Source: Eledone cirrhosa
Lineage: Eukaryota
Assembly (NCBI GenBank): GCA_964016885.1
Contig: OZ024758.1
Location: 62,001-126,000 of the forward strand
Direction: 5' to 3'
DNA: 64,000 bases
Part shown: positions 1,791 through 43,527 of the stretch, one piece after another
Layout of the letters: every line of letters starts with the position of its first letter
Numbering within the stretch: the stretch's first letter is position 1
Notes under the pieces: generated by a model
Databases searched by the model: none
What the model was told of the DNA's origin: nothing
What the model saw: the letters and a program-made list of their open reading frames with translations, nothing else
Position numbers and translations under genes: made by a program

Positions 1791-1845
1791 ATATTTTGAT
1801 TATAATAAAACAAATAATAATAGTAATAATAATAATAATAATAAT

Positions 1846-1891
1846 CGTCATTGTTCTTTTCTTCTGTGCCTTTCTTTGCCTTCTCTGTCAT
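1846..1891 (-). other. Putative terminal-type exon (acceptor only; end undefined), every complete unit
   Basis: Minus strand ttctttttttcttttatttttgttattcag|ATGACAGAGAAGGC...; strong polypyrimidine tract plus CAG; runs into (TAT)n. Confidence 0.45.
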
Positions 1892-2066
1892 CTGAATAAC
1901 AAAAATAAAAGAAAAAAAGAATCTTAAACATATGTTGCCTTTACAAAGTGCTGTGATCAAAGTAGCTTTTAAGCAATTTCCTAACTAACAAACAACATCA
2001 ACAAAATATATACAAATATCTTTGAATGTCAAGTCCACCAAGAGAAAATAGTCATAATGTACTTAC

Positions 2067-2121
2067 AGATACAATGCTAGGGACTCGCATCAATGAGTTT
2101 TAGTAGAAAATGACTGACTGA
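2067..2121 (-). other. Putative 55-nt exon with stops in all three frames, every complete unit
   Basis: Minus strand cctctgtcccctcaacag|TCAGTC...GTATCT|gtaagt. Confidence 0.4.
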
Positions 2122-2381
2122 CTGTTGAGGGGACAGAGGTGTGTTTTCAAATATTTATCAATTCACAACAAAGCCTCACAAAGCTACATCATAATGCAAA
2201 CTCACAACACCCTTCTTATGCAACCTCACCAAGCAACCCCACAACACAACCTCACGTTCACAATTCACAACACTCAACAAGGCATTCGTTATCTAGGGTT
2301 TACAGTAAACATAGCGAGGTAAGACACACCCAGTACACTCTGTAAAGTGGTCATTAGGTTAAGATTAAACTGAAATCATAC

Positions 2382-2459
2382 CTCCATTGTCGTTGGCGTA
2401 TATTTTCTCTAAAACTTAATTTCATTGCTTTCATTTCTCTTCTTTTTCTTCTATTCCAT
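2382..2459 (-). other. Putative 78-nt symmetric (phase 2-2) exon; copies also at 5745, 9108, 12471, 15834, 19192, 22832, 26195, 29558, 32921, 36279 and 39914
   Basis: Minus strand ttttttttcatatttag|ATGGAATAG...CAATGGAG|gtatga. The only open frame reads WNRRKRREMKAMKLSFRENIRQRQW. Confidence 0.6.
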
Positions 2460-2518
2460 CTAAATATGAAAAAAAAATTATACAGGTCATTTCGTCTTAT
2501 CAAGAGGTCCATTTAAAA

Positions 2519-2974
2519 TTGAGATTAACGAATATAGGGTCCAAGAGGCGATTAAGGAATTGAAAAATGGTGAGGCTGCTGGACCATCGGAGATAGTTGC
2601 TGAGATGCTGAAGGCCTCAGGGGACGTAGGCACTAAACTGGTTGCACACATCATCAATCAGGCTATATATGGCAGTGTCATACCCAAAGACTAGTGCAAA
2701 AGTAAAGGGGACGCTCTTGAGAGGAGAAATTATAGGGATATAAAACTGATGGATCAGGTTATGAAAGTGGCAGAAAGGATATTAGCACAACTAATTAGAG
2801 AAAGGGTCAAACTAGATGAGATGCAGTTTGGTTTTGTGCCTGGGAATAGTACAACAGATGCCCTCTTCTTGATGAGACAATTACAAGAGAGGTTCTTAGA
2901 GAAAAATAAGCCACTATACTTAGCCTTTGTTGACCTAGAGAAGGCCTTTGATAGGGTACGCCGATCTGTCATCT
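2519..2974 (+). pseudogene. RTE LINE reverse transcriptase N-terminal fragment, every complete unit
   Basis: AAGPSEIVAEMLKASG, NYR.IKLMDQVMKV.ERI, QFGFVPG.STTDA and AFVDLEKAFDRV; stops and truncation before YADD. Confidence 0.93.
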
Positions 2975-3133
2975 TATTATTTAACCTATAAATGGGGCCC
3001 CAACAGGTACTACTACACCAGGCCAGAGCAGACCTGGGAGTTATGACAACTAAGGGGGTAACTCCATGTTCCCCACAGTTCCTCCTGAACTTGAGCCTTG
3101 CCACTGGATGTAGTTTAATGTCATACCCAGGAC
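2975..3133 (-). mobile_element. Short interspersed repeat (SINE-like) interrupting the RT fragment, followed by (TA/CA)n at 3136-3215
   Basis: Non-LINE segment gtcctgggtatgacattaaactacatcc...ctcccaggtctgctctggcctggtgtagtagtacctgttgggg. It resembles an abundant cephalopod repeat from memory (not verified). Also present at 44088-44245. Confidence 0.55.
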
Positions 3134-3159
3134 AAATATATACATACATATATATACAT

Positions 3160-3200
<41 letters not shown>

Positions 3201-6200
3201 TACAAATATATATATGCGTACGAAAGTGTGGTTACATGATGCCTATGCGAGATGTGCGACCCTGCATGGTAGTGAAACATGGACAGCAACTGCAGAGGGT
3301 ATGCGATGGCTGGAGAGAAATGAAGCAAGCACGCTCCGTTGGATGTGCAATGTCAATGTGCGGGAACGACCAAGCATAAACGAGTTGAGAGAGAAACTGT
3401 GTTTAAGAGGGATAAGTTGTGGTGTGCAAGAGAGGACTGAGATGGTATGGGCATGTGATGCGCATGGAGGTTGAGCGCTGGGTAAAGAAGGGAGACGCAG
3501 TAGAGGAAGACCACGAAAAACATGGGTGGAGGTGGTGAGAGCCGACTTCAGATCGCTGAAACTCACCAAGGAGATGACGAAGGACCGTGACAAGTGAAGA
3601 GATGCTTTGCTCAAGAGGACCTGTCCCACCCTTTCAAGCAGGGAAAAGCGGACGTAAAATGATGAACAGACGATGATAATGATGCTCTCTATATATCTAT
3701 CTCTCTATCAATCTATCCAGATATCTGTGCATCAGTCTATCTATTTACCTATAAACACCCTCCTCACTCCGTCTCAGGATCACCGAGACATCACCAACAA
3801 CCAACCCACGCTGTGGGAAACAGTCCTCCCCGGGGCACACCCTGCTACTTCACACCATCTGTCTGTCTCGCTGCCTAACTACCGAGAAATCCGGCTTCTG
3901 TGCTTGCCTAATTTGTAGGTTATTAGGCAGTTGGCAGGTTTGCGGAAGTTGGTTTTGCAAATGGTTAAAACACTTGCATCACAAAATTCAAATAGCATCA
4001 CTCCTTGTTTTATCTTTCTCGTCTTTACCTAGGCCTGCATAAGTTAGTGTTACGGTTAGTGTTACTGTTAGCGTTACGACTAGTTTTAGGGTTAATTGAG
4101 AGCAAGAAACTGCTGCTAGGTAAAGACAAGAAATTCTGCATTTACAAGCAATTTTTACAAACAGCCACAATGACAGGACGGAGACATCGTTATGCTAGCA
4201 GGGGATTTCAATGGTCATGTTGGACAGCTCTACGATGGTTACACTGAGGTACATGTTGGGCACACTTACGGCTTAAGAAATGAAGCAGTGAAACTTCTTG
4301 AATTTTGCAATGCAATTGCACTAACCATCTACAACACTAACTTACACAAATCTGCCAACCACCTAATAACCTACAAATCAGGCAAGCACATAAGCCAGAT
4401 TGACTTCTTGCTAGTTAGGCAGCGGGACAGGCAGATGGTGTCAAATGCAAAGGCATACCCCGGGGAAGAATGTACCCCACAGCATAGGTTAGTCGTTAGT
4501 GATATCTCATTAAGCAAGAGACTGAATGAGACATACAGGAAGGTGTGGAAAAAAGAAAGGTCTGGAAGCTAAAAGAGCTCTCACTAAAATACAAATTTAG
4601 GAAAGCCCTTCAATATGTGTATGATGAAAAAGAAGACGATTTAGAGTCGTACAACATAGATGATAACTGGAATTTCTTATGCGATACCTTACTGCAGGTT
4701 ACTGATGAAACTTGTGGCTGGATCAGAGTTCCAACCAGACAGAGAGTGACATGGTGGTGGGACAGCACGGTAGATCGGGCCATTGGAGACTAAAGACTAG
4801 CATGGAATGCTTGCAAAATTAGTGCGAGTAGAGAAGAATATACAGCCGCTAAGAGAGAAGCTAGACGTCAGGTGTACTTAGCATGCAAGGAGGCTGCTCG
4901 ACGACGTGCGCTGTTCCGTACTGCAAGGCAGTGTGTCAGTGCAAATCGGGATTAAGTCTGTCCGCAATGATGCCGCTGTACTTTGTGTCACGAATGAGTG
5001 TTGATGAGTAGAAAAGAGGACAAAACTCTATTCCGTCAGGGAAATGGCCATGTTCGATATGCAGAAACGGAACTGGCATAAATTATATAAAACGTACACA
5101 AAAGATCGAGTGCGATAGCAGGCACGTAGTGGGATAGCAGGCAAACTAACAGCATATTTTGATTATAATAAAACAAATAATAATAGTAATAATAATAATA
5201 ATAATAATCGTCATTGTTCTTTTCTTCTGTGCCTTTCTTTGCCTTCTCTGTCATCTGAATAACAAAAATAAAAGAAAAAAAGAATCTTAAACATATGTTG
5301 CCTTTACAAAGTGCTGTGATCAAAGTAGCTTTTAAGCAATTTCCTAACTAACAAACAACATCAACAAAATATATACAAATATCTTTGAATGTCAAGTCCA
5401 CCAAGAGAAAATAGTCATAATGTACTTACAGATACAATGCTAGGGACTCGCATCAATGAGTTTTAGTAGAAAATGACTGACTGACTGTTGAGGGGACAGA
5501 GGTGTGTTTTCAAATATTTATCAATTCACAACAAAGCCTCACAAAGCTACATCATAATGCAAACTCACAACACCCTTCTTATGCAACCTCACCAAGCAAC
5601 CCCACAACACAACCTCACGTTCACAATTCACAACACTCAACAAGGCATTCGTTATCTAGGGTTTACAGTAAACATAGCGAGGTAAGACACACCCAGTACA
5701 CTCTGTAAAGTGGTCATTAGGTTAAGATTAAACTGAAATCATACCTCCATTGTCGTTGGCGTATATTTTCTCTAAAACTTAATTTCATTGCTTTCATTTC
5801 TCTTCTTTTTCTTCTATTCCATCTAAATATGAAAAAAAAATTATACAGGTCATTTCGTCTTATCAAGAGGTCCATTTAAAATTGAGATTAACGAATATAG
5901 GGTCCAAGAGGCGATTAAGGAATTGAAAAATGGTGAGGCTGCTGGACCATCGGAGATAGTTGCTGAGATGCTGAAGGCCTCAGGGGACGTAGGCACTAAA
6001 CTGGTTGCACACATCATCAATCAGGCTATATATGGCAGTGTCATACCCAAAGACTAGTGCAAAAGTAAAGGGGACGCTCTTGAGAGGAGAAATTATAGGG
6101 ATATAAAACTGATGGATCAGGTTATGAAAGTGGCAGAAAGGATATTAGCACAACTAATTAGAGAAAGGGTCAAACTAGATGAGATGCAGTTTGGTTTTGT

Positions 6201-6522
6201 GCCTGGGAATAGTACAACAGATGCCCTCTTCTTGATGAGACAATTACAAGAGAGGTTCTTAGAGAAAAATAAGCCACTATACTTAGCCTTTGTTGACCTA
6301 GAGAAGGCCTTTGATAGGGTACGCCGATCTGTCATCTTATTATTTAACCTATAAATGGGGCCCCAACAGGTACTACTACACCAGGCCAGAGCAGACCTGG
6401 GAGTTATGACAACTAAGGGGGTAACTCCATGTTCCCCACAGTTCCTCCTGAACTTGAGCCTTGCCACTGGATGTAGTTTAATGTCATACCCAGGACAAAT
6501 ATATACATACATATATATACAT

Positions 6523-6563
<41 letters not shown>

Positions 6564-9500
6564 TACAAATATATATATGCGTACGAAAGTGTGGTTACAT
6601 GATGCCTATGCGAGATGTGCGACCCTGCATGGTAGTGAAACATGGACAGCAACTGCAGAGGGTATGCGATGGCTGGAGAGAAATGAAGCAAGCACGCTCC
6701 GTTGGATGTGCAATGTCAATGTGCGGGAACGACCAAGCATAAACGAGTTGAGAGAGAAACTGTGTTTAAGAGGGATAAGTTGTGGTGTGCAAGAGAGGAC
6801 TGAGATGGTATGGGCATGTGATGCGCATGGAGGTTGAGCGCTGGGTAAAGAAGGGAGACGCAGTAGAGGAAGACCACGAAAAACATGGGTGGAGGTGGTG
6901 AGAGCCGACTTCAGATCGCTGAAACTCACCAAGGAGATGACGAAGGACCGTGACAAGTGAAGAGATGCTTTGCTCAAGAGGACCTGTCCCACCCTTTCAA
7001 GCAGGGAAAAGCGGACGTAAAATGATGAACAGACGATGATAATGATGCTCTCTATATATCTATCTCTCTATCAATCTATCCAGATATCTGTGCATCAGTC
7101 TATCTATTTACCTATAAACACCCTCCTCACTCCGTCTCAGGATCACCGAGACATCACCAACAACCAACCCACGCTGTGGGAAACAGTCCTCCCCGGGGCA
7201 CACCCTGCTACTTCACACCATCTGTCTGTCTCGCTGCCTAACTACCGAGAAATCCGGCTTCTGTGCTTGCCTAATTTGTAGGTTATTAGGCAGTTGGCAG
7301 GTTTGCGGAAGTTGGTTTTGCAAATGGTTAAAACACTTGCATCACAAAATTCAAATAGCATCACTCCTTGTTTTATCTTTCTCGTCTTTACCTAGGCCTG
7401 CATAAGTTAGTGTTACGGTTAGTGTTACTGTTAGCGTTACGACTAGTTTTAGGGTTAATTGAGAGCAAGAAACTGCTGCTAGGTAAAGACAAGAAATTCT
7501 GCATTTACAAGCAATTTTTACAAACAGCCACAATGACAGGACGGAGACATCGTTATGCTAGCAGGGGATTTCAATGGTCATGTTGGACAGCTCTACGATG
7601 GTTACACTGAGGTACATGTTGGGCACACTTACGGCTTAAGAAATGAAGCAGTGAAACTTCTTGAATTTTGCAATGCAATTGCACTAACCATCTACAACAC
7701 TAACTTACACAAATCTGCCAACCACCTAATAACCTACAAATCAGGCAAGCACATAAGCCAGATTGACTTCTTGCTAGTTAGGCAGCGGGACAGGCAGATG
7801 GTGTCAAATGCAAAGGCATACCCCGGGGAAGAATGTACCCCACAGCATAGGTTAGTCGTTAGTGATATCTCATTAAGCAAGAGACTGAATGAGACATACA
7901 GGAAGGTGTGGAAAAAAGAAAGGTCTGGAAGCTAAAAGAGCTCTCACTAAAATACAAATTTAGGAAAGCCCTTCAATATGTGTATGATGAAAAAGAAGAC
8001 GATTTAGAGTCGTACAACATAGATGATAACTGGAATTTCTTATGCGATACCTTACTGCAGGTTACTGATGAAACTTGTGGCTGGATCAGAGTTCCAACCA
8101 GACAGAGAGTGACATGGTGGTGGGACAGCACGGTAGATCGGGCCATTGGAGACTAAAGACTAGCATGGAATGCTTGCAAAATTAGTGCGAGTAGAGAAGA
8201 ATATACAGCCGCTAAGAGAGAAGCTAGACGTCAGGTGTACTTAGCATGCAAGGAGGCTGCTCGACGACGTGCGCTGTTCCGTACTGCAAGGCAGTGTGTC
8301 AGTGCAAATCGGGATTAAGTCTGTCCGCAATGATGCCGCTGTACTTTGTGTCACGAATGAGTGTTGATGAGTAGAAAAGAGGACAAAACTCTATTCCGTC
8401 AGGGAAATGGCCATGTTCGATATGCAGAAACGGAACTGGCATAAATTATATAAAACGTACACAAAAGATCGAGTGCGATAGCAGGCACGTAGTGGGATAG
8501 CAGGCAAACTAACAGCATATTTTGATTATAATAAAACAAATAATAATAGTAATAATAATAATAATAATAATCGTCATTGTTCTTTTCTTCTGTGCCTTTC
8601 TTTGCCTTCTCTGTCATCTGAATAACAAAAATAAAAGAAAAAAAGAATCTTAAACATATGTTGCCTTTACAAAGTGCTGTGATCAAAGTAGCTTTTAAGC
8701 AATTTCCTAACTAACAAACAACATCAACAAAATATATACAAATATCTTTGAATGTCAAGTCCACCAAGAGAAAATAGTCATAATGTACTTACAGATACAA
8801 TGCTAGGGACTCGCATCAATGAGTTTTAGTAGAAAATGACTGACTGACTGTTGAGGGGACAGAGGTGTGTTTTCAAATATTTATCAATTCACAACAAAGC
8901 CTCACAAAGCTACATCATAATGCAAACTCACAACACCCTTCTTATGCAACCTCACCAAGCAACCCCACAACACAACCTCACGTTCACAATTCACAACACT
9001 CAACAAGGCATTCGTTATCTAGGGTTTACAGTAAACATAGCGAGGTAAGACACACCCAGTACACTCTGTAAAGTGGTCATTAGGTTAAGATTAAACTGAA
9101 ATCATACCTCCATTGTCGTTGGCGTATATTTTCTCTAAAACTTAATTTCATTGCTTTCATTTCTCTTCTTTTTCTTCTATTCCATCTAAATATGAAAAAA
9201 AAATTATACAGGTCATTTCGTCTTATCAAGAGGTCCATTTAAAATTGAGATTAACGAATATAGGGTCCAAGAGGCGATTAAGGAATTGAAAAATGGTGAG
9301 GCTGCTGGACCATCGGAGATAGTTGCTGAGATGCTGAAGGCCTCAGGGGACGTAGGCACTAAACTGGTTGCACACATCATCAATCAGGCTATATATGGCA
9401 GTGTCATACCCAAAGACTAGTGCAAAAGTAAAGGGGACGCTCTTGAGAGGAGAAATTATAGGGATATAAAACTGATGGATCAGGTTATGAAAGTGGCAGA

Positions 9501-9885
9501 AAGGATATTAGCACAACTAATTAGAGAAAGGGTCAAACTAGATGAGATGCAGTTTGGTTTTGTGCCTGGGAATAGTACAACAGATGCCCTCTTCTTGATG
9601 AGACAATTACAAGAGAGGTTCTTAGAGAAAAATAAGCCACTATACTTAGCCTTTGTTGACCTAGAGAAGGCCTTTGATAGGGTACGCCGATCTGTCATCT
9701 TATTATTTAACCTATAAATGGGGCCCCAACAGGTACTACTACACCAGGCCAGAGCAGACCTGGGAGTTATGACAACTAAGGGGGTAACTCCATGTTCCCC
9801 ACAGTTCCTCCTGAACTTGAGCCTTGCCACTGGATGTAGTTTAATGTCATACCCAGGACAAATATATACATACATATATATACAT

Positions 9886-9926
<41 letters not shown>

Positions 9927-12900
9927 TACAAATATATATATGCGTACGAAAGTGTGGTTACATGATGCCTATGCGAGATGTGCGACCCTGCATGGTAGTG
10001 AAACATGGACAGCAACTGCAGAGGGTATGCGATGGCTGGAGAGAAATGAAGCAAGCACGCTCCGTTGGATGTGCAATGTCAATGTGCGGGAACGACCAAG
10101 CATAAACGAGTTGAGAGAGAAACTGTGTTTAAGAGGGATAAGTTGTGGTGTGCAAGAGAGGACTGAGATGGTATGGGCATGTGATGCGCATGGAGGTTGA
10201 GCGCTGGGTAAAGAAGGGAGACGCAGTAGAGGAAGACCACGAAAAACATGGGTGGAGGTGGTGAGAGCCGACTTCAGATCGCTGAAACTCACCAAGGAGA
10301 TGACGAAGGACCGTGACAAGTGAAGAGATGCTTTGCTCAAGAGGACCTGTCCCACCCTTTCAAGCAGGGAAAAGCGGACGTAAAATGATGAACAGACGAT
10401 GATAATGATGCTCTCTATATATCTATCTCTCTATCAATCTATCCAGATATCTGTGCATCAGTCTATCTATTTACCTATAAACACCCTCCTCACTCCGTCT
10501 CAGGATCACCGAGACATCACCAACAACCAACCCACGCTGTGGGAAACAGTCCTCCCCGGGGCACACCCTGCTACTTCACACCATCTGTCTGTCTCGCTGC
10601 CTAACTACCGAGAAATCCGGCTTCTGTGCTTGCCTAATTTGTAGGTTATTAGGCAGTTGGCAGGTTTGCGGAAGTTGGTTTTGCAAATGGTTAAAACACT
10701 TGCATCACAAAATTCAAATAGCATCACTCCTTGTTTTATCTTTCTCGTCTTTACCTAGGCCTGCATAAGTTAGTGTTACGGTTAGTGTTACTGTTAGCGT
10801 TACGACTAGTTTTAGGGTTAATTGAGAGCAAGAAACTGCTGCTAGGTAAAGACAAGAAATTCTGCATTTACAAGCAATTTTTACAAACAGCCACAATGAC
10901 AGGACGGAGACATCGTTATGCTAGCAGGGGATTTCAATGGTCATGTTGGACAGCTCTACGATGGTTACACTGAGGTACATGTTGGGCACACTTACGGCTT
11001 AAGAAATGAAGCAGTGAAACTTCTTGAATTTTGCAATGCAATTGCACTAACCATCTACAACACTAACTTACACAAATCTGCCAACCACCTAATAACCTAC
11101 AAATCAGGCAAGCACATAAGCCAGATTGACTTCTTGCTAGTTAGGCAGCGGGACAGGCAGATGGTGTCAAATGCAAAGGCATACCCCGGGGAAGAATGTA
11201 CCCCACAGCATAGGTTAGTCGTTAGTGATATCTCATTAAGCAAGAGACTGAATGAGACATACAGGAAGGTGTGGAAAAAAGAAAGGTCTGGAAGCTAAAA
11301 GAGCTCTCACTAAAATACAAATTTAGGAAAGCCCTTCAATATGTGTATGATGAAAAAGAAGACGATTTAGAGTCGTACAACATAGATGATAACTGGAATT
11401 TCTTATGCGATACCTTACTGCAGGTTACTGATGAAACTTGTGGCTGGATCAGAGTTCCAACCAGACAGAGAGTGACATGGTGGTGGGACAGCACGGTAGA
11501 TCGGGCCATTGGAGACTAAAGACTAGCATGGAATGCTTGCAAAATTAGTGCGAGTAGAGAAGAATATACAGCCGCTAAGAGAGAAGCTAGACGTCAGGTG
11601 TACTTAGCATGCAAGGAGGCTGCTCGACGACGTGCGCTGTTCCGTACTGCAAGGCAGTGTGTCAGTGCAAATCGGGATTAAGTCTGTCCGCAATGATGCC
11701 GCTGTACTTTGTGTCACGAATGAGTGTTGATGAGTAGAAAAGAGGACAAAACTCTATTCCGTCAGGGAAATGGCCATGTTCGATATGCAGAAACGGAACT
11801 GGCATAAATTATATAAAACGTACACAAAAGATCGAGTGCGATAGCAGGCACGTAGTGGGATAGCAGGCAAACTAACAGCATATTTTGATTATAATAAAAC
11901 AAATAATAATAGTAATAATAATAATAATAATAATCGTCATTGTTCTTTTCTTCTGTGCCTTTCTTTGCCTTCTCTGTCATCTGAATAACAAAAATAAAAG
12001 AAAAAAAGAATCTTAAACATATGTTGCCTTTACAAAGTGCTGTGATCAAAGTAGCTTTTAAGCAATTTCCTAACTAACAAACAACATCAACAAAATATAT
12101 ACAAATATCTTTGAATGTCAAGTCCACCAAGAGAAAATAGTCATAATGTACTTACAGATACAATGCTAGGGACTCGCATCAATGAGTTTTAGTAGAAAAT
12201 GACTGACTGACTGTTGAGGGGACAGAGGTGTGTTTTCAAATATTTATCAATTCACAACAAAGCCTCACAAAGCTACATCATAATGCAAACTCACAACACC
12301 CTTCTTATGCAACCTCACCAAGCAACCCCACAACACAACCTCACGTTCACAATTCACAACACTCAACAAGGCATTCGTTATCTAGGGTTTACAGTAAACA
12401 TAGCGAGGTAAGACACACCCAGTACACTCTGTAAAGTGGTCATTAGGTTAAGATTAAACTGAAATCATACCTCCATTGTCGTTGGCGTATATTTTCTCTA
12501 AAACTTAATTTCATTGCTTTCATTTCTCTTCTTTTTCTTCTATTCCATCTAAATATGAAAAAAAAATTATACAGGTCATTTCGTCTTATCAAGAGGTCCA
12601 TTTAAAATTGAGATTAACGAATATAGGGTCCAAGAGGCGATTAAGGAATTGAAAAATGGTGAGGCTGCTGGACCATCGGAGATAGTTGCTGAGATGCTGA
12701 AGGCCTCAGGGGACGTAGGCACTAAACTGGTTGCACACATCATCAATCAGGCTATATATGGCAGTGTCATACCCAAAGACTAGTGCAAAAGTAAAGGGGA
12801 CGCTCTTGAGAGGAGAAATTATAGGGATATAAAACTGATGGATCAGGTTATGAAAGTGGCAGAAAGGATATTAGCACAACTAATTAGAGAAAGGGTCAAA

Positions 12901-13248
12901 CTAGATGAGATGCAGTTTGGTTTTGTGCCTGGGAATAGTACAACAGATGCCCTCTTCTTGATGAGACAATTACAAGAGAGGTTCTTAGAGAAAAATAAGC
13001 CACTATACTTAGCCTTTGTTGACCTAGAGAAGGCCTTTGATAGGGTACGCCGATCTGTCATCTTATTATTTAACCTATAAATGGGGCCCCAACAGGTACT
13101 ACTACACCAGGCCAGAGCAGACCTGGGAGTTATGACAACTAAGGGGGTAACTCCATGTTCCCCACAGTTCCTCCTGAACTTGAGCCTTGCCACTGGATGT
13201 AGTTTAATGTCATACCCAGGACAAATATATACATACATATATATACAT

Positions 13249-13289
<41 letters not shown>

Positions 13290-16200: not shown

Positions 16201-16611
16201 ATGGATCAGGTTATGAAAGTGGCAGAAAGGATATTAGCACAACTAATTAGAGAAAGGGTCAAACTAGATGAGATGCAGTTTGGTTTTGTGCCTGGGAATA
16301 GTACAACAGATGCCCTCTTCTTGATGAGACAATTACAAGAGAGGTTCTTAGAGAAAAATAAGCCACTATACTTAGCCTTTGTTGACCTAGAGAAGGCCTT
16401 TGATAGGGTACGCCGATCTGTCATCTTATTATTTAACCTATAAATGGGGCCCCAACAGGTACTACTACACCAGGCCAGAGCAGACCTGGGAGTTATGACA
16501 ACTAAGGGGGTAACTCCATGTTCCCCACAGTTCCTCCTGAACTTGAGCCTTGCCACTGGATGTAGTTTAATGTCATACCCAGGACAAATATATACATACA
16601 TATATATACAT

Positions 16612-16652
<41 letters not shown>

Positions 16653-19320: not shown

Positions 19321-19324
<4 letters not shown>

Positions 19325-19355
<31 letters not shown>

Positions 19356-23609: not shown

Positions 23610-23650
<41 letters not shown>

Positions 23651-26972: not shown

Positions 26973-27013
<41 letters not shown>

Positions 27014-30000: not shown

Positions 30001-30335
30001 AGTTTGGTTTTGTGCCTGGGAATAGTACAACAGATGCCCTCTTCTTGATGAGACAATTACAAGAGAGGTTCTTAGAGAAAAATAAGCCACTATACTTAGC
30101 CTTTGTTGACCTAGAGAAGGCCTTTGATAGGGTACGCCGATCTGTCATCTTATTATTTAACCTATAAATGGGGCCCCAACAGGTACTACTACACCAGGCC
30201 AGAGCAGACCTGGGAGTTATGACAACTAAGGGGGTAACTCCATGTTCCCCACAGTTCCTCCTGAACTTGAGCCTTGCCACTGGATGTAGTTTAATGTCAT
30301 ACCCAGGACAAATATATACATACATATATATACAT

Positions 30336-30376
<41 letters not shown>

Positions 30377-33300
30377 TACAAATATATATATGCGTACGAA
30401 AGTGTGGTTACATGATGCCTATGCGAGATGTGCGACCCTGCATGGTAGTGAAACATGGACAGCAACTGCAGAGGGTATGCGATGGCTGGAGAGAAATGAA
30501 GCAAGCACGCTCCGTTGGATGTGCAATGTCAATGTGCGGGAACGACCAAGCATAAACGAGTTGAGAGAGAAACTGTGTTTAAGAGGGATAAGTTGTGGTG
30601 TGCAAGAGAGGACTGAGATGGTATGGGCATGTGATGCGCATGGAGGTTGAGCGCTGGGTAAAGAAGGGAGACGCAGTAGAGGAAGACCACGAAAAACATG
30701 GGTGGAGGTGGTGAGAGCCGACTTCAGATCGCTGAAACTCACCAAGGAGATGACGAAGGACCGTGACAAGTGAAGAGATGCTTTGCTCAAGAGGACCTGT
30801 CCCACCCTTTCAAGCAGGGAAAAGCGGACGTAAAATGATGAACAGACGATGATAATGATGCTCTCTATATATCTATCTCTCTATCAATCTATCCAGATAT
30901 CTGTGCATCAGTCTATCTATTTACCTATAAACACCCTCCTCACTCCGTCTCAGGATCACCGAGACATCACCAACAACCAACCCACGCTGTGGGAAACAGT
31001 CCTCCCCGGGGCACACCCTGCTACTTCACACCATCTGTCTGTCTCGCTGCCTAACTACCGAGAAATCCGGCTTCTGTGCTTGCCTAATTTGTAGGTTATT
31101 AGGCAGTTGGCAGGTTTGCGGAAGTTGGTTTTGCAAATGGTTAAAACACTTGCATCACAAAATTCAAATAGCATCACTCCTTGTTTTATCTTTCTCGTCT
31201 TTACCTAGGCCTGCATAAGTTAGTGTTACGGTTAGTGTTACTGTTAGCGTTACGACTAGTTTTAGGGTTAATTGAGAGCAAGAAACTGCTGCTAGGTAAA
31301 GACAAGAAATTCTGCATTTACAAGCAATTTTTACAAACAGCCACAATGACAGGACGGAGACATCGTTATGCTAGCAGGGGATTTCAATGGTCATGTTGGA
31401 CAGCTCTACGATGGTTACACTGAGGTACATGTTGGGCACACTTACGGCTTAAGAAATGAAGCAGTGAAACTTCTTGAATTTTGCAATGCAATTGCACTAA
31501 CCATCTACAACACTAACTTACACAAATCTGCCAACCACCTAATAACCTACAAATCAGGCAAGCACATAAGCCAGATTGACTTCTTGCTAGTTAGGCAGCG
31601 GGACAGGCAGATGGTGTCAAATGCAAAGGCATACCCCGGGGAAGAATGTACCCCACAGCATAGGTTAGTCGTTAGTGATATCTCATTAAGCAAGAGACTG
31701 AATGAGACATACAGGAAGGTGTGGAAAAAAGAAAGGTCTGGAAGCTAAAAGAGCTCTCACTAAAATACAAATTTAGGAAAGCCCTTCAATATGTGTATGA
31801 TGAAAAAGAAGACGATTTAGAGTCGTACAACATAGATGATAACTGGAATTTCTTATGCGATACCTTACTGCAGGTTACTGATGAAACTTGTGGCTGGATC
31901 AGAGTTCCAACCAGACAGAGAGTGACATGGTGGTGGGACAGCACGGTAGATCGGGCCATTGGAGACTAAAGACTAGCATGGAATGCTTGCAAAATTAGTG
32001 CGAGTAGAGAAGAATATACAGCCGCTAAGAGAGAAGCTAGACGTCAGGTGTACTTAGCATGCAAGGAGGCTGCTCGACGACGTGCGCTGTTCCGTACTGC
32101 AAGGCAGTGTGTCAGTGCAAATCGGGATTAAGTCTGTCCGCAATGATGCCGCTGTACTTTGTGTCACGAATGAGTGTTGATGAGTAGAAAAGAGGACAAA
32201 ACTCTATTCCGTCAGGGAAATGGCCATGTTCGATATGCAGAAACGGAACTGGCATAAATTATATAAAACGTACACAAAAGATCGAGTGCGATAGCAGGCA
32301 CGTAGTGGGATAGCAGGCAAACTAACAGCATATTTTGATTATAATAAAACAAATAATAATAGTAATAATAATAATAATAATAATCGTCATTGTTCTTTTC
32401 TTCTGTGCCTTTCTTTGCCTTCTCTGTCATCTGAATAACAAAAATAAAAGAAAAAAAGAATCTTAAACATATGTTGCCTTTACAAAGTGCTGTGATCAAA
32501 GTAGCTTTTAAGCAATTTCCTAACTAACAAACAACATCAACAAAATATATACAAATATCTTTGAATGTCAAGTCCACCAAGAGAAAATAGTCATAATGTA
32601 CTTACAGATACAATGCTAGGGACTCGCATCAATGAGTTTTAGTAGAAAATGACTGACTGACTGTTGAGGGGACAGAGGTGTGTTTTCAAATATTTATCAA
32701 TTCACAACAAAGCCTCACAAAGCTACATCATAATGCAAACTCACAACACCCTTCTTATGCAACCTCACCAAGCAACCCCACAACACAACCTCACGTTCAC
32801 AATTCACAACACTCAACAAGGCATTCGTTATCTAGGGTTTACAGTAAACATAGCGAGGTAAGACACACCCAGTACACTCTGTAAAGTGGTCATTAGGTTA
32901 AGATTAAACTGAAATCATACCTCCATTGTCGTTGGCGTATATTTTCTCTAAAACTTAATTTCATTGCTTTCATTTCTCTTCTTTTTCTTCTATTCCATCT
33001 AAATATGAAAAAAAAATTATACAGGTCATTTCGTCTTATCAAGAGGTCCATTTAAAATTGAGATTAACGAATATAGGGTCCAAGAGGCGATTAAGGAATT
33101 GAAAAATGGTGAGGCTGCTGGACCATCGGAGATAGTTGCTGAGATGCTGAAGGCCTCAGGGGACGTAGGCACTAAACTGGTTGCACACATCATCAATCAG
33201 GCTATATATGGCAGTGTCATACCCAAAGACTAGTGCAAAAGTAAAGGGGACGCTCTTGAGAGGAGAAATTATAGGGATATAAAACTGATGGATCAGGTTA

Positions 33301-33698
33301 TGAAAGTGGCAGAAAGGATATTAGCACAACTAATTAGAGAAAGGGTCAAACTAGATGAGATGCAGTTTGGTTTTGTGCCTGGGAATAGTACAACAGATGC
33401 CCTCTTCTTGATGAGACAATTACAAGAGAGGTTCTTAGAGAAAAATAAGCCACTATACTTAGCCTTTGTTGACCTAGAGAAGGCCTTTGATAGGGTACGC
33501 CGATCTGTCATCTTATTATTTAACCTATAAATGGGGCCCCAACAGGTACTACTACACCAGGCCAGAGCAGACCTGGGAGTTATGACAACTAAGGGGGTAA
33601 CTCCATGTTCCCCACAGTTCCTCCTGAACTTGAGCCTTGCCACTGGATGTAGTTTAATGTCATACCCAGGACAAATATATACATACATATATATACAT

Positions 33699-33739
<41 letters not shown>

Positions 33740-36407
33740 TACAAATATATATATGCGTACGAAAGTGTGGTTACATGATGCCTATGCGAGATGTGCGACC
33801 CTGCATGGTAGTGAAACATGGACAGCAACTGCAGAGGGTATGCGATGGCTGGAGAGAAATGAAGCAAGCACGCTCCGTTGGATGTGCAATGTCAATGTGC
33901 GGGAACGACCAAGCATAAACGAGTTGAGAGAGAAACTGTGTTTAAGAGGGATAAGTTGTGGTGTGCAAGAGAGGACTGAGATGGTATGGGCATGTGATGC
34001 GCATGGAGGTTGAGCGCTGGGTAAAGAAGGGAGACGCAGTAGAGGAAGACCACGAAAAACATGGGTGGAGGTGGTGAGAGCCGACTTCAGATCGCTGAAA
34101 CTCACCAAGGAGATGACGAAGGACCGTGACAAGTGAAGAGATGCTTTGCTCAAGAGGACCTGTCCCACCCTTTCAAGCAGGGAAAAGCGGACGTAAAATG
34201 ATGAACAGACGATGATAATGATGCTCTCTATATATCTATCTCTCTATCAATCTATCCAGATATCTGTGCATCAGTCTATCTATTTACCTATAAACACCCT
34301 CCTCACTCCGTCTCAGGATCACCGAGACATCACCAACAACCAACCCACGCTGTGGGAAACAGTCCTCCCCGGGGCACACCCTGCTACTTCACACCATCTG
34401 TCTGTCTCGCTGCCTAACTACCGAGAAATCCGGCTTCTGTGCTTGCCTAATTTGTAGGTTATTAGGCAGTTGGCAGGTTTGCGGAAGTTGGTTTTGCAAA
34501 TGGTTAAAACACTTGCATCACGAAATTCAAATAGCATCACTCCTTGTTTTATCTTTCTCGTCTTTACCCAGGCCTGCATAAGTTAGTGTTACGGTTAGTG
34601 TTACTGTTAGCGTTACGGCTAGTTTTAGGGTTAATTGAGAGCAAGAAACTGCTGCTAGGTAAAGACAAGAAATTCTGCATTTACAAGCAATTTTTACAAA
34701 CAGCCACAATGACAGGACGGAGACATCGTTATGCTAGCAGGGGATTTCAATGGTCATGTTGGACAGCTCTACGATGGTTACACCGAGGTACATGTTGGGC
34801 ACACTTACGGCTTAAGAAATGAAGCAGTGAAACTTCTTGAATTTTGCGATGCAATTGCACTAACCATCTACAACACTAACTTACACAAATCTGCCAACCA
34901 CCTAATAACCTACAAATCAGGCAAGCACATAAGCCAGATTGACTTCTTGCTAGTTAGGCAGCGGGACAGGCAGATGGTGTCAAATACAAAGGCATACCCC
35001 GGGGAAGAATGTACCCCACAGCATAGGTTAGTCGTTAGTGATATCTCATTAAGCAAGAGACTGAATGAGACATACAGGAAGGTGTGGAAAAAAGAAAGGT
35101 CTGGAAGCTAAAAGAGCTCTCACTAAAATACAAATTTAGGAAAGCCCTTCAATATGTGTATGATGAAAAAGAAGACGATTTAGAGTCGTACAACATAGAT
35201 GATAACTGGAATTTCTTATGCGATACCTTACCGCAGGTTACTGATGAAACTTGTGGCTGGATCAGAGTTCCAACCAGACAGAGAGTGACATGGTGGTGGG
35301 ACAGCACGGTAGATCGGGCCATTGGAGACTAAAGACTAGCATGGAATGCTTGCAAAATTAGTGCGAGTAGAGAAGAATATACAGCCGCTAAGAGAGAAGC
35401 TAGACGTCAGGTGTACTTAGCATGCAAGGAGGCTGCTCGACGACGTGCGCTGTTCCGTACTGCAAGGCAGTGTGTCAGTGAAAATCGGGATTAAGTCTGC
35501 CCGCAATGATGCCGCTGTACTTTGTGTCACGAATGAGTGTTGATGAGTAGAAAAGAGGACAAAACTCTATTCCGTCAGGGAAATGGCCATGTTCGATATG
35601 CAGAAACGGAACTGGCATAAATTATATAAAACGTACACAAAAGATCGAGTGCGATAGCAGGCACGTAGTGGGATAGCAGGCAAACTAACAGCATATTTTG
35701 ATTATAATAAAACAAATAATAATAGTAATAATAATAATAATAATCGTCATTGTTCTTTTCTTCTGTGCCTTTCTTTGCCTTCTCTGTCATCTGAATAACA
35801 AAAATAAAAGAAAAAAAGAATCTTAAACATATGTTGCCTTTACAAAGTGCTGTGATCAAAGTAGCTTTTAAGCAATTTCCTAACTAACAAACAACATCAA
35901 CAAAATATATACAAATATCTTTGAATGTCAAGTCCACCAAGAGAAAATAGTCATAATGTACTTACAGATACAATGCTAGGGACTCGCATCAATGAGTTTT
36001 AGTAGAAAATGACTGACTGACTGTTGAGGGGACAGAGGTGTGTTTTCAAATATTTATCAATTCACAACAAAGCCTCACAAAGCTACATCATAATGCAAAC
36101 TCACAACACCCTTCTTATGCAACCTCACCAAGCAACCCCACAACACAACCTCACGTTCACAATTCACAACACTCAACAAGGCATTCGTTATCTAGGGTTT
36201 ACAGTAAACATAGCGAGGTAAAACACCCAGTACACTCTGTAAAGTGGTCATTAGGTTAAGATTAAACTGAAATCATACCTCCATTGTCGTTGGCGTATAT
36301 TTTCTCTAAAACTTAATTTCATTGCTTTCATTTCTCTTCTTTTTCTTCTATTCCATCTAAATATGAAAAAAAAATTATACAGGTCATTTCGTCTTATCAA
36401 GAGGTCC

Positions 36408-36442
<35 letters not shown>

Positions 36443-39400
36443 GAGATAATACCTTAAAATAATGGTAAAAAAAGTGTTTAATTACGAAAATCCTTTGAAA
36501 TAACTTCCTCGCTCTTACTGGTCATACCTGCAAAACACAAAACACTAGCGTTAGCGTGAACAGTGCAGTGCAGTGCAGTGCAGTGTAATTTAGTATGGTG
36601 CAGTTTAGTGGCACAGTACACTGTAAAACATTTAGCCAATCTCTCAGACATTTACAAATCTTTCAAGATATATATATATATGGGAGAGAGAGAAATTACC
36701 CTCAGTAGATCAGACAGAGGGACCAGCTATTGAGATTGACGAATATAGGGTCCAAGAGGCGATTAAGGAAATGAAAAATGGTGAGGCTGCTGGACCATCG
36801 GAGATAGTTGCTGAGATGCTGAAGGCCTCAGGGGACGTAGGCACTAAACTGGTTGCACACATCATCAATCAGGCTATATATGGCAGTGTCATACCCAAAG
36901 ACTAGTGCAAAAGTAAAGGGGATGCTCTTGAGAGGAGAAATTATAGGGATATAAAACTGATGGATCAGGTTATGAAAGTGGCAGAAAGGATATTAGCACA
37001 ACTAATTAGAGAAAGGGTCAAACTAGATGAGATGCAGTTTGGTTTTGTGCCTGGGAATAGTACAACAGATGCCCTCTTCTTGATGAGACAATTACAAGAG
37101 AGGTTCTTAGAGAAAAATAAGCCACTATACTTAGCCTTTGTTGACCTAGAGAAGGCCTTTGATAGGGTACGCCGATCTGTCATCTTATTATTTAACCTAT
37201 AAATGGGGCCCCAACAGGTACTACTACACCAGGCCAGAGCAGACCTGGGAGTTATGACAACTAAGGGGGTAACTCCACGTTCCCCACAGTTCCTCCTGAA
37301 CTTGAGCCTTGCCACTGGATGTAGTTTAATGTCATACCCAGGACAAATATATACATACATATATATATATACATACACACATATATATATATATATATAT
37401 ACATATATACAAATATATATATGCGTACGAAAGTGTGGTTACATGATGCCTATGCGAGATGTGCGACCCTGCATGGTAGTGAGACATGGACAGCAACTGC
37501 AGAGGGTATGCGATGGCTGGAGAGAAATGAAGCAAGCACGCTCCGTTGGATGTGCAATGTCAATGTGCGGGAACGACCAAGCATAAACGAGTTGAGAGAG
37601 AAACTGTGTTTAAGAGGGATAAGTTGTGGTGTGCAAGAGAGGACTGAGATGGTATGGGCATGTGATGCGCATGGAGGTTGAGCGCTGGGTAAAGAAGGGA
37701 GACGCAGTAGAGGAAGACCACGAAAAACATGGGTGGAGGTGGTGAGAGCCGACTTCAGATCGCTGAAACTCACCAAGGAGATGACGAAGGACCGTGACAA
37801 GTGAAGAGATGCTTTGCTCAAGAGGACCTGTCCCACCCTTTCAAGCAGGGAAAAGCGGACGTAAAATGATGAACAGACGATGATAATGATGCTCTCTATA
37901 TATCTATCTCTCTATCAATCTATCCAGATATCTGTGCATCAGTCTATCTATTTACCTATAAACACCCTCCTCACTCCGTCTCAGGATCACCGAGACATCA
38001 CCAACAACCAACCCACGCTGTGGGAAACAGTCCTCCCCGGGGCACACCCTGCTACTTCACACCATCTGTCTGTCTCGCTGCCTAACTACCGAGAAATCCG
38101 GCTTCTGTGCTTGCCTAATTTGTAGGTTATTAGGCAGTTGGCAGGTTTGCGGAAGTTGGTTTTGCAAATGGTTAAAACACTTGCATCACGAAATTCAAAT
38201 AGCATCACTCCTTGTTTTATCTTTCTCGTCTTTACCCAGGCCTGCATAAGTTAGTGTTACGGTTAGTGTTACTGTTAGCGTTACGGCTAGTTTTAGGGTT
38301 AATTGAGAGCAAGAAACTGCTGCTAGGTAAAGACAAGAAATTCTGCATTTACAAGCAATTTTTACAAACAGCCACAATGACAGGACGGAGACATCGTTAT
38401 GCTAGCAGGGGATTTCAATGGTCATGTTGGACAGCTCTACGATGGTTACACCGAGGTACGTGTTGGGCACACTTACGGCTTAAGAAATGAAGCAGTGAAA
38501 CTTCTTGAATTTTGCGATGCAATTGCACTAACCATCTACAACACTAACTTACACAAATCTGCCAACCACCTAATAACCTACAAATCAGGCAAGCACATAA
38601 GCCAGATTGACTTCTTGCTAGTTAGGCAGCGGGACAGGCAGATGGTGTCAAATACAAAGGCATACCCCGGGGAAGAATGTACCCCAAGCAAGAGACTGAA
38701 TGAGACATACAGGAAGGTGTGGAAAAAAGAAAGGTCTGGAAGCTAAAAGAGCTCTCACTAAAATACAAATTTAGGAAAGCCCTTCAATACGTGTATGATG
38801 AAAAAGAAGACGATTTAGAGTCGTACAACATAGATGATAACTGGAATTTCTTATGCGATACCTTACTGCAGGTTACTGATGAAACTTGTGGCTGGATCAG
38901 AGTTCCAACCAGACAGAGAGTGACATGGTGGTGGGACAGCACGGTAGATCGGGCCATTGGAGACTAAAGACTAGCATGGAATGCTTGCAAAATTAGTGCG
39001 AGTAGAGAAGAATATACAGCCGCTAAGAGAGAAGCTAGACGTCAGGTGTACTTAGCATGCAAGGAGGCTGCTCGACGACGTGCGCTGTTCCGTACTGCAA
39101 GGCAGTGTGTCAGTGCAAATCGGGATTAAGTCTGTCCGCAATGATGCCGCTGTACTTTGTGTCACGAATGAGTGTTGATGAGTAGAAAAGAGGACAAAAC
39201 TCTATTCCGTCAGGGAAATGGCCATGTTCGATATGCAGAAACGGAACTGGCATAAATTATATAAAACGTACACAAAAGATCGAGTGCGATAGCAGGCACG
39301 TAGTGGGATAGCAGGCAAACTAACAGCATATTTTGATTATAATAAAACAAATAATAATAGTAATAATAATAATAATAATCGTCATTGTTCTTTTCTTCTG

Positions 39401-40042
39401 TGCCTTTCTTTGCCTTCTCTGTCATCTGAATAACAAAAATAAAAGAAAAAAAGAATCTTAAACATATGTTGCCTTTACAAAGTGCTGTGATCAAAGTAGC
39501 TTTTAAGCAATTTCCTAACTAACAAACAACATCAACAAAATATATACAAATATCTTTGAATGTCAAGTCCACCAAGAGAAAATAGTCATAATGTACTTAC
39601 AGATACAATGCTAGGGACTCGCATCAATGAGTTTTAGTAGAAAATGACTGACTGACTGTTGAGGGGACAGAGGTGTGTTTTCAAATATTTATCAATTCAC
39701 AACAAAGCCTCACAAAGCTACATCATAATGCAAACTCACAACACCCTTCTTATGCAACCTCACCAAGCAACCCCACAACACAACCTCACGTTCACAATTC
39801 ACAACACTCAACAAGGCATTCGTTATCTAGGGTTTACAGTAAACATAGCGAGGTAAAACACCCAGTACACTCTGTAAAGTGGTCATTAGGTTAAGATTAA
39901 ACTGAAATCATACCTCCATTGTCGTTGGCGTATATTTTCTCTAAAACTTAATTTCATTGCTTTCATTTCTCTTCTTTTTCTTCTATTCCATCTAAATATG
40001 AAAAAAAAATTATACAGGTCATTTCGTCTTATCAAGAGGTCC

Positions 40043-40077
<35 letters not shown>

Positions 40078-42675
40078 GAGATAATACCTTAAAATAATGG
40101 TAAAAAAAGTGTTTAATTACGAAAATCCTTTGAAATAACTTCCTCGCTCTTACTGGTCATACCTGCAAAACACAAAACACTAGCGTTAGCGTGAACAGTG
40201 CAGTGCAGTGCAGTGCAGTGTAATTTAGTATGGTGCAGTTTAGTGGCACAGTACACTGTAAAACATTTAGCCAATCTCTCAGACATTTACAAATCTTTCA
40301 AGATATATATATATATGGGAGAGAGAGAAATTACCCTCAGTAGATCAGACAGAGGGACCAGCTATTGAGATTGACGAATATAGGGTCCAAGAGGCGATTA
40401 AGGAAATGAAAAATGGTGAGGCTGCTGGACCATCGGAGATAGTTGCTGAGATGCTGAAGGCCTCAGGGGACGTAGGCACTAAACTGGTTGCACACATCAT
40501 CAATCAGGCTATATATGGCAGTGTCATACCCAAAGACTAGTGCAAAAGTAAAGGGGATGCTCTTGAGAGGAGAAATTATAGGGATATAAAACTGATGGAT
40601 CAGGTTATGAAAGTGGCAGAAAGGATATTAGCACAACTAATTAGAGAAAGGGTCAAACTAGATGAGATGCAGTTTGGTTTTGTGCCTGGGAATAGTACAA
40701 CAGATGCCCTCTTCTTGATGAGACAATTACAAGAGAGGTTCTTAGAGAAAAATAAGCCACTATACTTAGCCTTTGTTGACCTAGAGAAGGCCTTTGATAG
40801 GGTACGCCGATCTGTCATCTTATTATTTAACCTATAAATGGGGCCCCAACAGGTACTACTACACCAGGCCAGAGCAGACCTGGGAGTTATGACAACTAAG
40901 GGGGTAACTCCACGTTCCCCACAGTTCCTCCTGAACTTGAGCCTTGCCACTGGATGTAGTTTAATGTCATACCCAGGACAAATATATACATACATATATA
41001 TATATACATACACACATATATATATATATATATATACATATATACAAATATATATATGCGTACGAAAGTGTGGTTACATGATGCCTATGCGAGATGTGCG
41101 ACCCTGCATGGTAGTGAGACATGGACAGCAACTGCAGAGGGTATGCGATGGCTGGAGAGAAATGAAGCAAGCACGCTCCGTTGGATGTGCAATGTCAATG
41201 TGCGGGAACGACCAAGCATAAACGAGTTGAGAGAGAAACTGTGTTTAAGAGGGATAAGTTGTGGTGTGCAAGAGAGGACTGAGATGGTATGGGCATGTGA
41301 TGCGCATGGAGGTTGAGCGCTGGGTAAAGAAGGGAGACGCAGTAGAGGAAGACCACGAAAAACATGGGTGGAGGTGGTGAGAGCCGACTTCAGATCGCTG
41401 AAACTCACCAAGGAGATGACGAAGGACCGTGACAAGTGAAGAGATGCTTTGCTCAAGAGGACCTGTCCCACCCTTTCAAGCAGGGAAAAGCGGACGTAAA
41501 ATGATGAACAGACGATGATAATGATGCTCTCTATATATCTATCTCTCTATCAATCTATCCAGATATCTGTGCATCAGTCTATCTATTTACCTATAAACAC
41601 CCTCCTCACTCCGTCTCAGGATCACCGAGACATCACCAACAACCAACCCACGCTGTGGGAAACAGTCCTCCCCGGGGCACACCCTGCTACTTCACACCAT
41701 CTGTCTGTCTCGCTGCCTAACTACCGAGAAATCCGGCTTCTGTGCTTGCCTAATTTGTAGGTTATTAGGCAGTTGGCAGGTTTGCGGAAGTTGGTTTTGC
41801 AAATGGTTAAAACACTTGCATCACGAAATTCAAATAGCATCACTCCTTGTTTTATCTTTCTCGTCTTTACCCAGGCCTGCATAAGTTAGTGTTACGGTTA
41901 GTGTTACTGTTAGCGTTACGGCTAGTTTTAGGGTTAATTGAGAGCAAGAAACTGCTGCTAGGTAAAGACAAGAAATTCTGCATTTACAAGCAATTTTTAC
42001 AAACAGCCACAATGACAGGACGGAGACATCGTTATGCTAGCAGGGGATTTCAATGGTCATGTTGGACAGCTCTACGATGGTTACACCGAGGTACGTGTTG
42101 GGCACACTTACGGCTTAAGAAATGAAGCAGTGAAACTTCTTGAATTTTGCGATGCAATTGCACTAACCATCTACAACACTAACTTACACAAATCTGCCAA
42201 CCACCTAATAACCTACAAATCAGGCAAGCACATAAGCCAGATTGACTTCTTGCTAGTTAGGCAGCGGGACAGGCAGATGGTGTCAAATACAAAGGCATAC
42301 CCCGGGGAAGAATGTACCCCAAGCAAGAGACTGAATGAGACATACAGGAAGGTGTGGAAAAAAGAAAGGTCTGGAAGCTAAAAGAGCTCTCACTAAAATA
42401 CAAATTTAGGAAAGCCCTTCAATACGTGTATGATGAAAAAGAAGACGATTTAGAGTCGTACAACATAGATGATAACTGGAATTTCTTATGCGATACCTTA
42501 CTGCAGGTTACTGATGAAACTTGTGGCTGGATCAGAGTTCCAACCAGACAGAGAGTGACATGGTGGTGGGACAGCACGGTAGATCGGGCCATTGGAGACT
42601 AAAGACTAGCATGGAATGCTTGCAAAATTAGTGCGAGTAGAGAAGAATATACAGCCGCTAAGAGAGAAGCTAGAG

Positions 42676-43527
42676 GTTAGGTGTACTTAGCACGCAAGGA
42701 GGCTGCTCGACAAGAAGATCAAAGACGCGCCGTGTTCCGTATTGCGAGGCTGTGTGTCAGTGCAAATCGAGATTAAGTTTGTCTGCTTAATGATGCCGGC
42801 GTACTTAGTTTTACGGATGGTCAGAAAAAAAAGGCCTGGAAATGTCATTAAGAGAGACTGATGAATGTGGAGACCCAATGTGAGAAAGAGAGAAATTACC
42901 CCCCCAGTACATCCGACAGAGGGATCAGCTATTCAGATTGACGAATATATGGTCTAAGAGGCGATTAAGGAAATGAATAATGGTAAGGCCGCTGGACCGT
43001 CAGGAATAGTTGCCGAGATGCTGCAGGCATCAGGGGACATAGGCACTCAACTGGTTGCACGCTTCATCAAATCAGGCTATATATGTCGGTTTTGTACTCA
43101 AAGACTGCTGCAGCAATATTCTCGTAAATTGCTACAAAGGTAAAGGAGATGCTCTGGACATGAGCAATTATAGAGGAATAAAGCTGATGGATCAGGTTGT
43201 GAAAGTGGCAGAAAGGATATTAGCGCAACTAATTATAGAAAGGGTGCAACTAGATGCGATGCAGTTTGGTTATGTGCCTGGGAAAAGTGCAACAGATACC
43301 CTCTTAGCGAGACAACTACAAGAGAGGTTATTAGAAGCCACTATACTTAGCTTTTGTTGAAATAACTTCCTTTCTCTTACTGATCATAACTGCAAAATAG
43401 AAAACAGTAGCGTTAGCGTGAACAGTACAGTGCAGTGTAGTGTAGTGTGATTTAGTATGGTGCAGTTTAGTGGCACAGTACACTGTAAAACATTTAGCCA
43501 ATCTCTCAGACATTTACAAATATTTCA

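Follow-up and report, generated by a model that had tools for sequence, protein, structure and literature searches.

A tandem array with an invariant exon

The window analysed here is the whole 64,000-nt stretch at positions 62001-126000 of contig OZ024758.1 (C19) in the Eledone cirrhosa assembly GCA_964016885.1. It holds a tandem array whose units each carry, beside debris of a long interspersed nuclear element (LINE), a non-LINE island with a 78-nt exon on the minus strand (Table 1). We consider it likely that this array is a telomere-adjacent macrosatellite, composed of LINE debris and a decayed intron-bearing repeat, which is transcribed toward the telomere into a spliced noncoding RNA.

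The units lie head to tail and measure 3.35-3.7 kb, and their copy number varies from 1 to 16 per locus, as in other macrosatellites. Two types are distinguished by spacing, 3358-3363 bp for type A and 3635-3640 bp for type B. Seven of 11 complete units are byte-identical, and the island at 1790-2515 has 12 matches in the window, nine at 100% and three at 99.2%. Outside the island each unit consists of plus-strand LINE debris, recognised by its RVT_1 match; we take this LINE to be putatively RTE-like.

Table 1. Features of the window (positions are those of the window; a slash marks a splice boundary)
Feature	Position	Strand	Remarks
Macrosatellite array	1..42819	.	12 exon-bearing units in the window; extends left of the window
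Reverse-transcriptase fragment of LINE debris	2695..2964	+	In every unit; RVT_1, E 4e-10; spliced RNA is antisense to it
Island	39326..40313	-	Collinear remnant of the dispersed family; blocks 66-86% identical in 6/6 long loci examined
78-nt exon, most centromere-proximal copy	39914..39991	-	Donor used in run X1
78-nt exon, copy cited in the initial annotation	2382..2459	-	Type A unit, without the 314-bp segment
Identical exon copies besides that at 39914 (11, including that at 2382), low-coordinate starts	2382, 5745, 9108, 12471, 15834, 19192, 22832, 26195, 29558, 32921, 36279	-
GT-AG intron, 488 nt	39426..39913	-	Skipped in X1 at depth 262.5; unskipped in X2, X5 and X6
Next exon of the unit, start	39380..39425	-	Acceptor TTCAG/ATGA; 12 copies, 1891 to 39425; Arg-stop after the 78-nt exon
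Exon-like segment, 55 nt, 12 copies	39601..39655	-	Lies within the intron skipped in X1; use not apparent
Predicted intron, 96 nt	39992..40087	-	Replacement donor AAG/GTATTA; type B units only (40087, 36452, 19365)
Dead donor	40130..40142	-	GAAGT, against GTAAGT in the C28 paralog (donor used by X1 record 8)
9-nt segment ("microexon")	40154..40162; also 19432-19440, 36519-36527, 43381-43389	-
Type-B-only segment, 314 bp	36415..36728	.	Missing from type A; holds the upstream donors and the 9-nt segment
Helitron-like remnant of an ORF start	49440..49750	-	Upstream common flank; purine-rich exon look-alike, broken in all frames

An initial annotation, made from the letters of the window, had described co-oriented splice signals around this exon in 12 copies. 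This holds: exon, acceptor (a T-run, CATATTTAG) and donor (GAG/GTATGA) are letter-identical in 12/12 copies, from 2459-2382 to 39991-39914. The exon is also, as described, open only in the phase-2 frame (WNRRKRREMKAMKLSFRENIRQRQW, below the WNRR frame), the other two frames containing 2 and 3 stops. An open frame is not beyond chance, however, since 9% of 20,000 shuffles left a given frame open and 25% left at least one frame open. Exon and introns alike are ~99% identical between chromosome ends, and the twelve identical copies therefore count as a single observation. Where the annotation had established no start codon in this frame, in-frame ATGs are present, both within the exon (M-K-A-M) and at the start of a 52-codon unspliced open reading frame (ORF) that begins at 2512 in window copies.

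Across the assembly, the 26-aa peptide was identical in 150/150 scored matches, out of 177 candidates. Seventy-one complete array-type exons were compared, the variant copies having been chosen for retrieval partly because they differ; 59 equal the reference and 12 do not. They contain six distinct sense-codon changes, of which five are missense and none is synonymous; the sixth is a nonsense change that closes the frame in two single copies. A selection test within the array was set aside because the copies are too alike.

Probable splicing in the array

The island is contained in six sequencing runs, none of them recorded as RNA, and four (X1, X2, X5 and X6) were aligned to 39380-40330. X1 and X2 come from different samples of one organism and amount to 88 and 1428 million letters, respectively; X1 is probably RNA, and X2 is DNA-like. 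In X2, 712 contigs aligned, with joints reported down to a depth of 3.9. X5 and X6, from other organisms, cover the island patchily at depth 2-4 with no joint and are uninformative.

Among the four runs, X1 was the only one with a canonical GT-AG junction, from 39914 to 39425. Minus-strand splice sites of the amplified cassette, as postulated in the annotation, are real. A canonical junction found in X1 and missing from DNA-like data is the pattern given by spliced RNA, X1 being RNA by inference. The depth of X1 contigs, a weak measure, is 406 over the exon versus 75-201 over the introns. The junction ties the 78-nt exon to the next exon within the same unit and reads AG/A TGA, i.e., Arg-stop. 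Because the partner of the 78-nt exon starts with a stop codon, the product is likely a noncoding RNA and not a repeat peptide, in keeping with the fallback idea of the annotation that amplified long noncoding RNA (lncRNA) or dead exons are seen here.

The acceptor of the 78-nt exon is probably in use at the array as well; its use was seen in a paralog on contig C28 (see below). At the 5′ end of the exon the X1 depth leaves a residual of 131.6, which reveals another upstream partner for the exon. The 96-nt intron in Table 1 is predicted from an X1 contig ending at 40088 together with the depth residuals, with no joint listed; type A units lack the donor at 40088.

The annotation further proposed that joining exon copies, or inserting a 9-nt microexon, would keep the frame open across the array. 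As arithmetic the former is correct, the exon being phase 2-2 and open. The actual joining was not seen: the exon-to-exon reads that the annotation sought are not listed among the X1 contigs, and a model with such a go-back joint fits the X1 depth bins with a root-mean-square deviation (rmsd) of 18.7, versus 0.14-0.26 for fitting models. The 9-nt segment occurs at four sites, so that only 3/12 exon copies have it directly upstream. X1 contigs (records 7 and 8) read through it as the interior of a longer exon, with a residual of 0.0, and a microexon spliced at both ends gives an rmsd of 9.0. Over the 3′ half of the exon and the surroundings of the 9-nt segment the X1 pieces sum to the depth bins within 0.5, hence the misfit of both junctions.

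In the modelled spliced RNA stops lie before the exon and directly after it, and the longest ATG-started product in the WNRR frame has 18 residues. As modelled, this RNA has no conserved or long ORF, as expected of an lncRNA. No AATAAA or ATTAAA occurs within 39425-38601, downstream of the acceptor of the stop-bearing exon. Two further observations fall in the 488-nt intron. X1 has a non-canonical joint at 39563-39881 (depth 16.5, with 31 letters between), and a 32-bp piece at 39855-39886 reaches a depth of about 200,000 in X2 with many loose ends, being part of an abundant short repeat.

A paralogous array and a probable dispersed source family

Record 8 of X1, a diverged contig with a depth of 490, matches the assembly exactly at 61 sites. 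Of these, 45 belong to an array at 124.7-126.45 Mb of C28, which spans about 1.7 Mb and has a period of roughly 28-90 kb (30-45 kb in most cases). Record 8 is canonically spliced from the C28 upstream donor, an intact GTAAGT. That donor is one base short in 62/62 array-type copies read and intact in 5 C28-type copies; in C28 the 9-nt segment sits inside the upstream exon. The C28 exon has 69 nt, and its WNRR frame closes after M-K; the frame is closed in 5/5 C28-type copies. Between window and C28 the exon is 78% identical and the flanking intron 90% and 100%. In the C28 unit the stop-bearing exon and pieces of the LINE recur in a permuted arrangement, which suggests that the unit was already tandem when the two arrays split. 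The C28 array was also considered as a histone cluster (0/67 PF00125 matches on C28 and only two histone stem-loop matches) and as ribosomal DNA (no rRNA match in 110 kb), and both were rejected.

Just past the exon donor (39864-39913, minus strand) 50 intron bases are identical between the array and C28, 34 of them also in a copy on C2; this stretch has no Rfam match. This array type was also noted at C18:6.71 Mb, C178 and C1185, and the C28 array holds CpG-rich sub-repeats and CCCTAA-like tracts.

The C2 copy belongs to a dispersed family. When up to 3 mismatches are allowed, a conserved tag from the intron gives 249 matches, one of which lies in this family at C2:51.84 Mb. The family counts 1845 candidates, 40 of them scored, on C1-C4 and C8, and its best full-length members are 81-88% identical to the C2 copy. 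Judged by collinear similarity (Table 1), the island is a decayed piece of this repeat family. Among the 12 best loci the exon measures 89-132 nt; the acceptor AG and donor GT are retained in 12/12, and the next acceptor was found in 11/12. The annotation had named a dispersed transposable element with unconserved splice-like motifs as the outcome that would speak against it; the island is indeed a dispersed repeat, and its splice motifs are conserved, not degenerate. The WNRR-equivalent frame is closed in 12/12 of these relatives. A K/T-rich phase-0 frame is open in 11/12 and closed at codon 3 in the array; 4/10 of its changes in the family are synonymous versus 23% expected, which is not significant.

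Two candidate identities for the family were rejected, i.e., an ancestral gene in the acidic phase-1 frame, closed in 12/12 relatives, and a foldback or terminal-inverted-repeat element, as no inverted termini are common to 6 loci. Pfam matches in 50/243 candidate ORFs are generic neighbours of the transposable-element or zinc-finger kind. Family members share a low-complexity block of 10-20 kb. The family also features CACCA and ACTAAC repeats, sub-repeats of ~300 bp and three acceptor modules. Histone genes surround one copy, at C2:321.56 Mb, and a C2H2 zinc-finger array is found about 8 kb from another.

Distribution across chromosome ends

Contig C19 opens with CCCTAA repeats, and its telomere tract spans C19:1-4574. 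Of the 16 exon copies on this contig, the last lies about 46 kb from its tract. The locus aligns at 92-99.6% with ten stretches on five other contigs, so that the array and its flanks form one common block, which extends over >120 kb and is shared with other chromosome ends at 94-99.6%. An assembly-wide search with a 34-nt tag from the exon gave 170 exact matches, with positions listed for 100. Twenty arrays were checked for telomere tracts; those on C1, C3, C14, C58 and C1499 lay outside this check. A kb-long tract follows downstream in 8/10 contig-end arrays and 9/10 scaffold-internal arrays, i.e., in 17/20, and the exon points toward the tract in 17/17. No tract was present in the stretch read at the start of C8, the start of C15 and C21:14.0 Mb. 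By its size, its high identity and these tracts the block is a subtelomeric duplicon.

Eight of the nine internal tracts adjoin a 200-N gap; they are telomere-bearing contig ends joined by mis-scaffolding or fusion. The internal kb-long tracts lie at C4:1.88, C5:9.72, C7:65.65, C11:32.85, C11:35.21, C12:43.36, C21:13.86, C24:9.11 and C27:0.87 Mb. The macrosatellite serves as a marker of chromosome ends in the assembly, since 8/10 of the internal arrays examined terminate in a telomere tract that adjoins a scaffold gap.

Proposed origin of the array and probable nature of its RNA

We propose that a fragment of the dispersed intron-bearing repeat, with its splice sites ready-made, was captured together with LINE debris in a telomere-adjacent block. 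The captured unit would have been amplified in tandem by unequal exchange, and the array spread and homogenised through recombination between chromosome ends. These steps of capture, amplification and spread would follow established subtelomere behaviour. Loss of one base from the ancestral upstream donor may have shifted splicing to a donor 55 nt downstream. Telomere-directed transcription, spliced at the inherited sites, would then yield an RNA without a usable ORF and antisense to the LINE pieces, presumably in the main a by-product of subtelomeric transcription.

Several points weigh against this proposal. Splice sites retained over three repeat generations and the invariant 50-nt intron stretch may mean selection on the RNA, and the absence of synonymous changes (0/6), although neutral-looking, is weak (chance p about 0.36). 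The source family is unclassified. The kind of X1, RNA or DNA, is not on record, and it is the single run of its sort; its data are contigs of one sample, so rare splice forms would be invisible. At 39663 one nucleotide is deleted in the intron contig of X1, an allele seen in 29/46 retrieved copies outside the window and in 0/12 within it, so the X1 RNA is not assignable to the window array. The donor at 40088 fits X1 best (rmsd 0.14), with an upstream exon outside the stretch nearly equal (0.26), both under one coverage assumption. No promoter, 5′ end or 3′ end of the transcript was found.

RNAs of Drosophila telomere-associated sequence (TAS) repeats and the D4Z4-linked lncRNA are examples of RNAs that help to set subtelomeric chromatin. 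The array RNA might be functional in the same sense, as a telomere-directed lncRNA or a precursor of PIWI-interacting RNAs (piRNAs), antisense to the LINE; the anatomy would be identical and only selection would differ. We regard this as possible, though doubtful. Place and polarity are fixed at 17/20 arrays, but this polarity follows from the copying of the whole block as one piece. Splice sites were retained while frames decayed, the donor has apparently been replaced, and splicing is also seen in the C28 paralog (depth 490); against this, exon and intron diverge alike in 7 dispersed copies (3.2% and 3.6%), and no Rfam family reaches its gathering score in 36300-50500, where the 8 weak matches are microsatellite look-alikes of miRNAs outside the island. 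Drosophila TAS, which are likewise satellite-like and subtelomeric, yield abundant germline piRNAs according to PMC6043984.

Put more broadly, and just as tentatively, there could be a telomere-linked lncRNA system in which a spliced LINE-antisense module passed through three generations, i.e., the dispersed family, the 1.7-Mb macro-array and the macrosatellite at most telomere-bearing ends. Its splice sites would have been conserved or replaced while all frames decayed, and its RNA would be a putative TAS- or TERRA-like (telomeric repeat-containing RNA) regulator or piRNA source whose dose follows array length; we hold this, too, to be rather unlikely. If the RNA does prove regulatory, it would offer a handle on subtelomeric chromatin in this lineage.

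A micropeptide is very unlikely. It could consist of 18 residues from the in-exon ATG or of 52 from unspliced 2512-2357, ORFs that both exist, or be a pseudo-copy of the dispersed K/T-rich peptide, whose phase-0 frame is open in most relatives with the synonymous share given above. However, the 52-codon frame has only 40-47 codons in other arrays, and its product, which contains the 26-aa peptide, has no homologue among 1.84 billion representatives and no match among longer proteins (a weak search) or in Pfam. As for the K/T-rich peptide, its early stop in the array, the lack of significance and the matching exon and intron rates all speak against it.

The copy-number-variable basic 26-residue repeat, a polymer made by exon-to-exon splicing across the array, was the central proposal of the annotation and can in our view be given up almost entirely. 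The exon is phase 2-2 and open, its donor is in use and its peptide is identical in all scored matches, but this identity reflects recent homogenisation, since exon and introns are alike ~99% identical between ends. Where the joint would add depth the residual is 0.0-0.5, the observed partner exon gives Arg-stop, the frame is closed in 17/17 diverged relatives read (5/5 C28-type, 12/12 dispersed), and the modelled RNA has no upstream start and no protein match. No more credible is the view that the array is silent and that the X1 junction stems from a chimeric assembly or a DNA copy lacking the intron: no record identifies X1 as RNA, and its sample differs from that of X2, but two independent canonical GT-AG joins, of array and paralog type, are both missing from X2, which has 1428 million letters of the same organism against 88 million in X1.

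We thus retain the spliced noncoding RNA as the preferred reading. On present evidence the locus clearly exemplifies a subtelomeric macrosatellite that is transcribed and whose origin can be traced. It also illustrates that a symmetric exon with an open frame, once homogenised across an array, may look like a gene for a repeat protein.

Comparison with known subtelomeric systems

TERRA and subtelomeric lncRNAs run toward the chromosome end. The array RNA resembles them as a noncoding subtelomeric RNA (bioRxiv 10.1101/2025.05.15.654290), but on C19 some 46 kb separate the array from the tract, and a promoter was not found. Human D4Z4 (4q35/10q26, with DUX4 and an lncRNA), as portrayed in PMC5687341, is similar in its 3.3-kb-class subtelomeric unit, its variable copy number, its presence at more than one chromosome end and its transcription. 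D4Z4 has a protein ORF and two ends, whereas the Eledone unit has no coding evidence and occupies at least 17 telomere-bearing ends; the likeness meant here is one of layout. More generally, coding macrosatellites (D4Z4/DUX4, TAF11-like) have a protein ORF with homologues or under purifying selection; here no homologue was found and the frame is closed in relatives. A protein with tandem exon repeats would show in-frame exon-to-exon splicing, which the contigs of the one run do not.

Drosophila TAS are likewise complex, satellite-like subtelomeric tandem repeats that are transcribed, but as dual-strand piRNA clusters (PMC6043984), whereas here only a minus-strand spliced form was seen; the chromosome ends here are TTAGGG tracts, not retrotransposon arrays. 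The Hydractinia subtelomeric repeat (PMC11934779) is also transposon-derived and locally amplified in an invertebrate subtelomere, and the Eledone block contains PIF1 helicase remnants. That unit is 372 bp and Helitron-like, while ours is 3.4-3.7 kb of LINE debris and an unclassified spliced repeat, with the Helitron-like pieces lying outside the unit. In our reading the array is a transcribed, spliced and likely noncoding subtelomeric macrosatellite. Searches of open-licence papers, made on the assumption of a cephalopod, listed no description of such a system for the lineage.

Neighbouring elements

The purine-rich "exon" at about 49500 was considered as a host exon and rejected, because related sequences look like the beginning of a Helitron-like ORF; we base this presumed Helitron identity on Rep motifs in those relatives. 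PIF1-type, Helitron-like helicase remnants lie in the telomere-side flank (L014:8830-9267, minus strand; L015:5403-5988, plus strand), and such remnants in the block face both directions; a reading of the entire block as a single giant Helitron was also considered. Fragments at 47080-48160 (minus strand) resemble by eye what we take to be a Merlin-type transposase and the integrase end of a long-terminal-repeat element. Between telomere and array, C19:7500-27000 holds an older degenerate tandem duplication (~5 kb, 86-95%). Just right of the window, at C19:126000-156000, lies a second macrosatellite with a period of ~5.9 kb and broken reverse-transcriptase-like ORFs of another retroelement.

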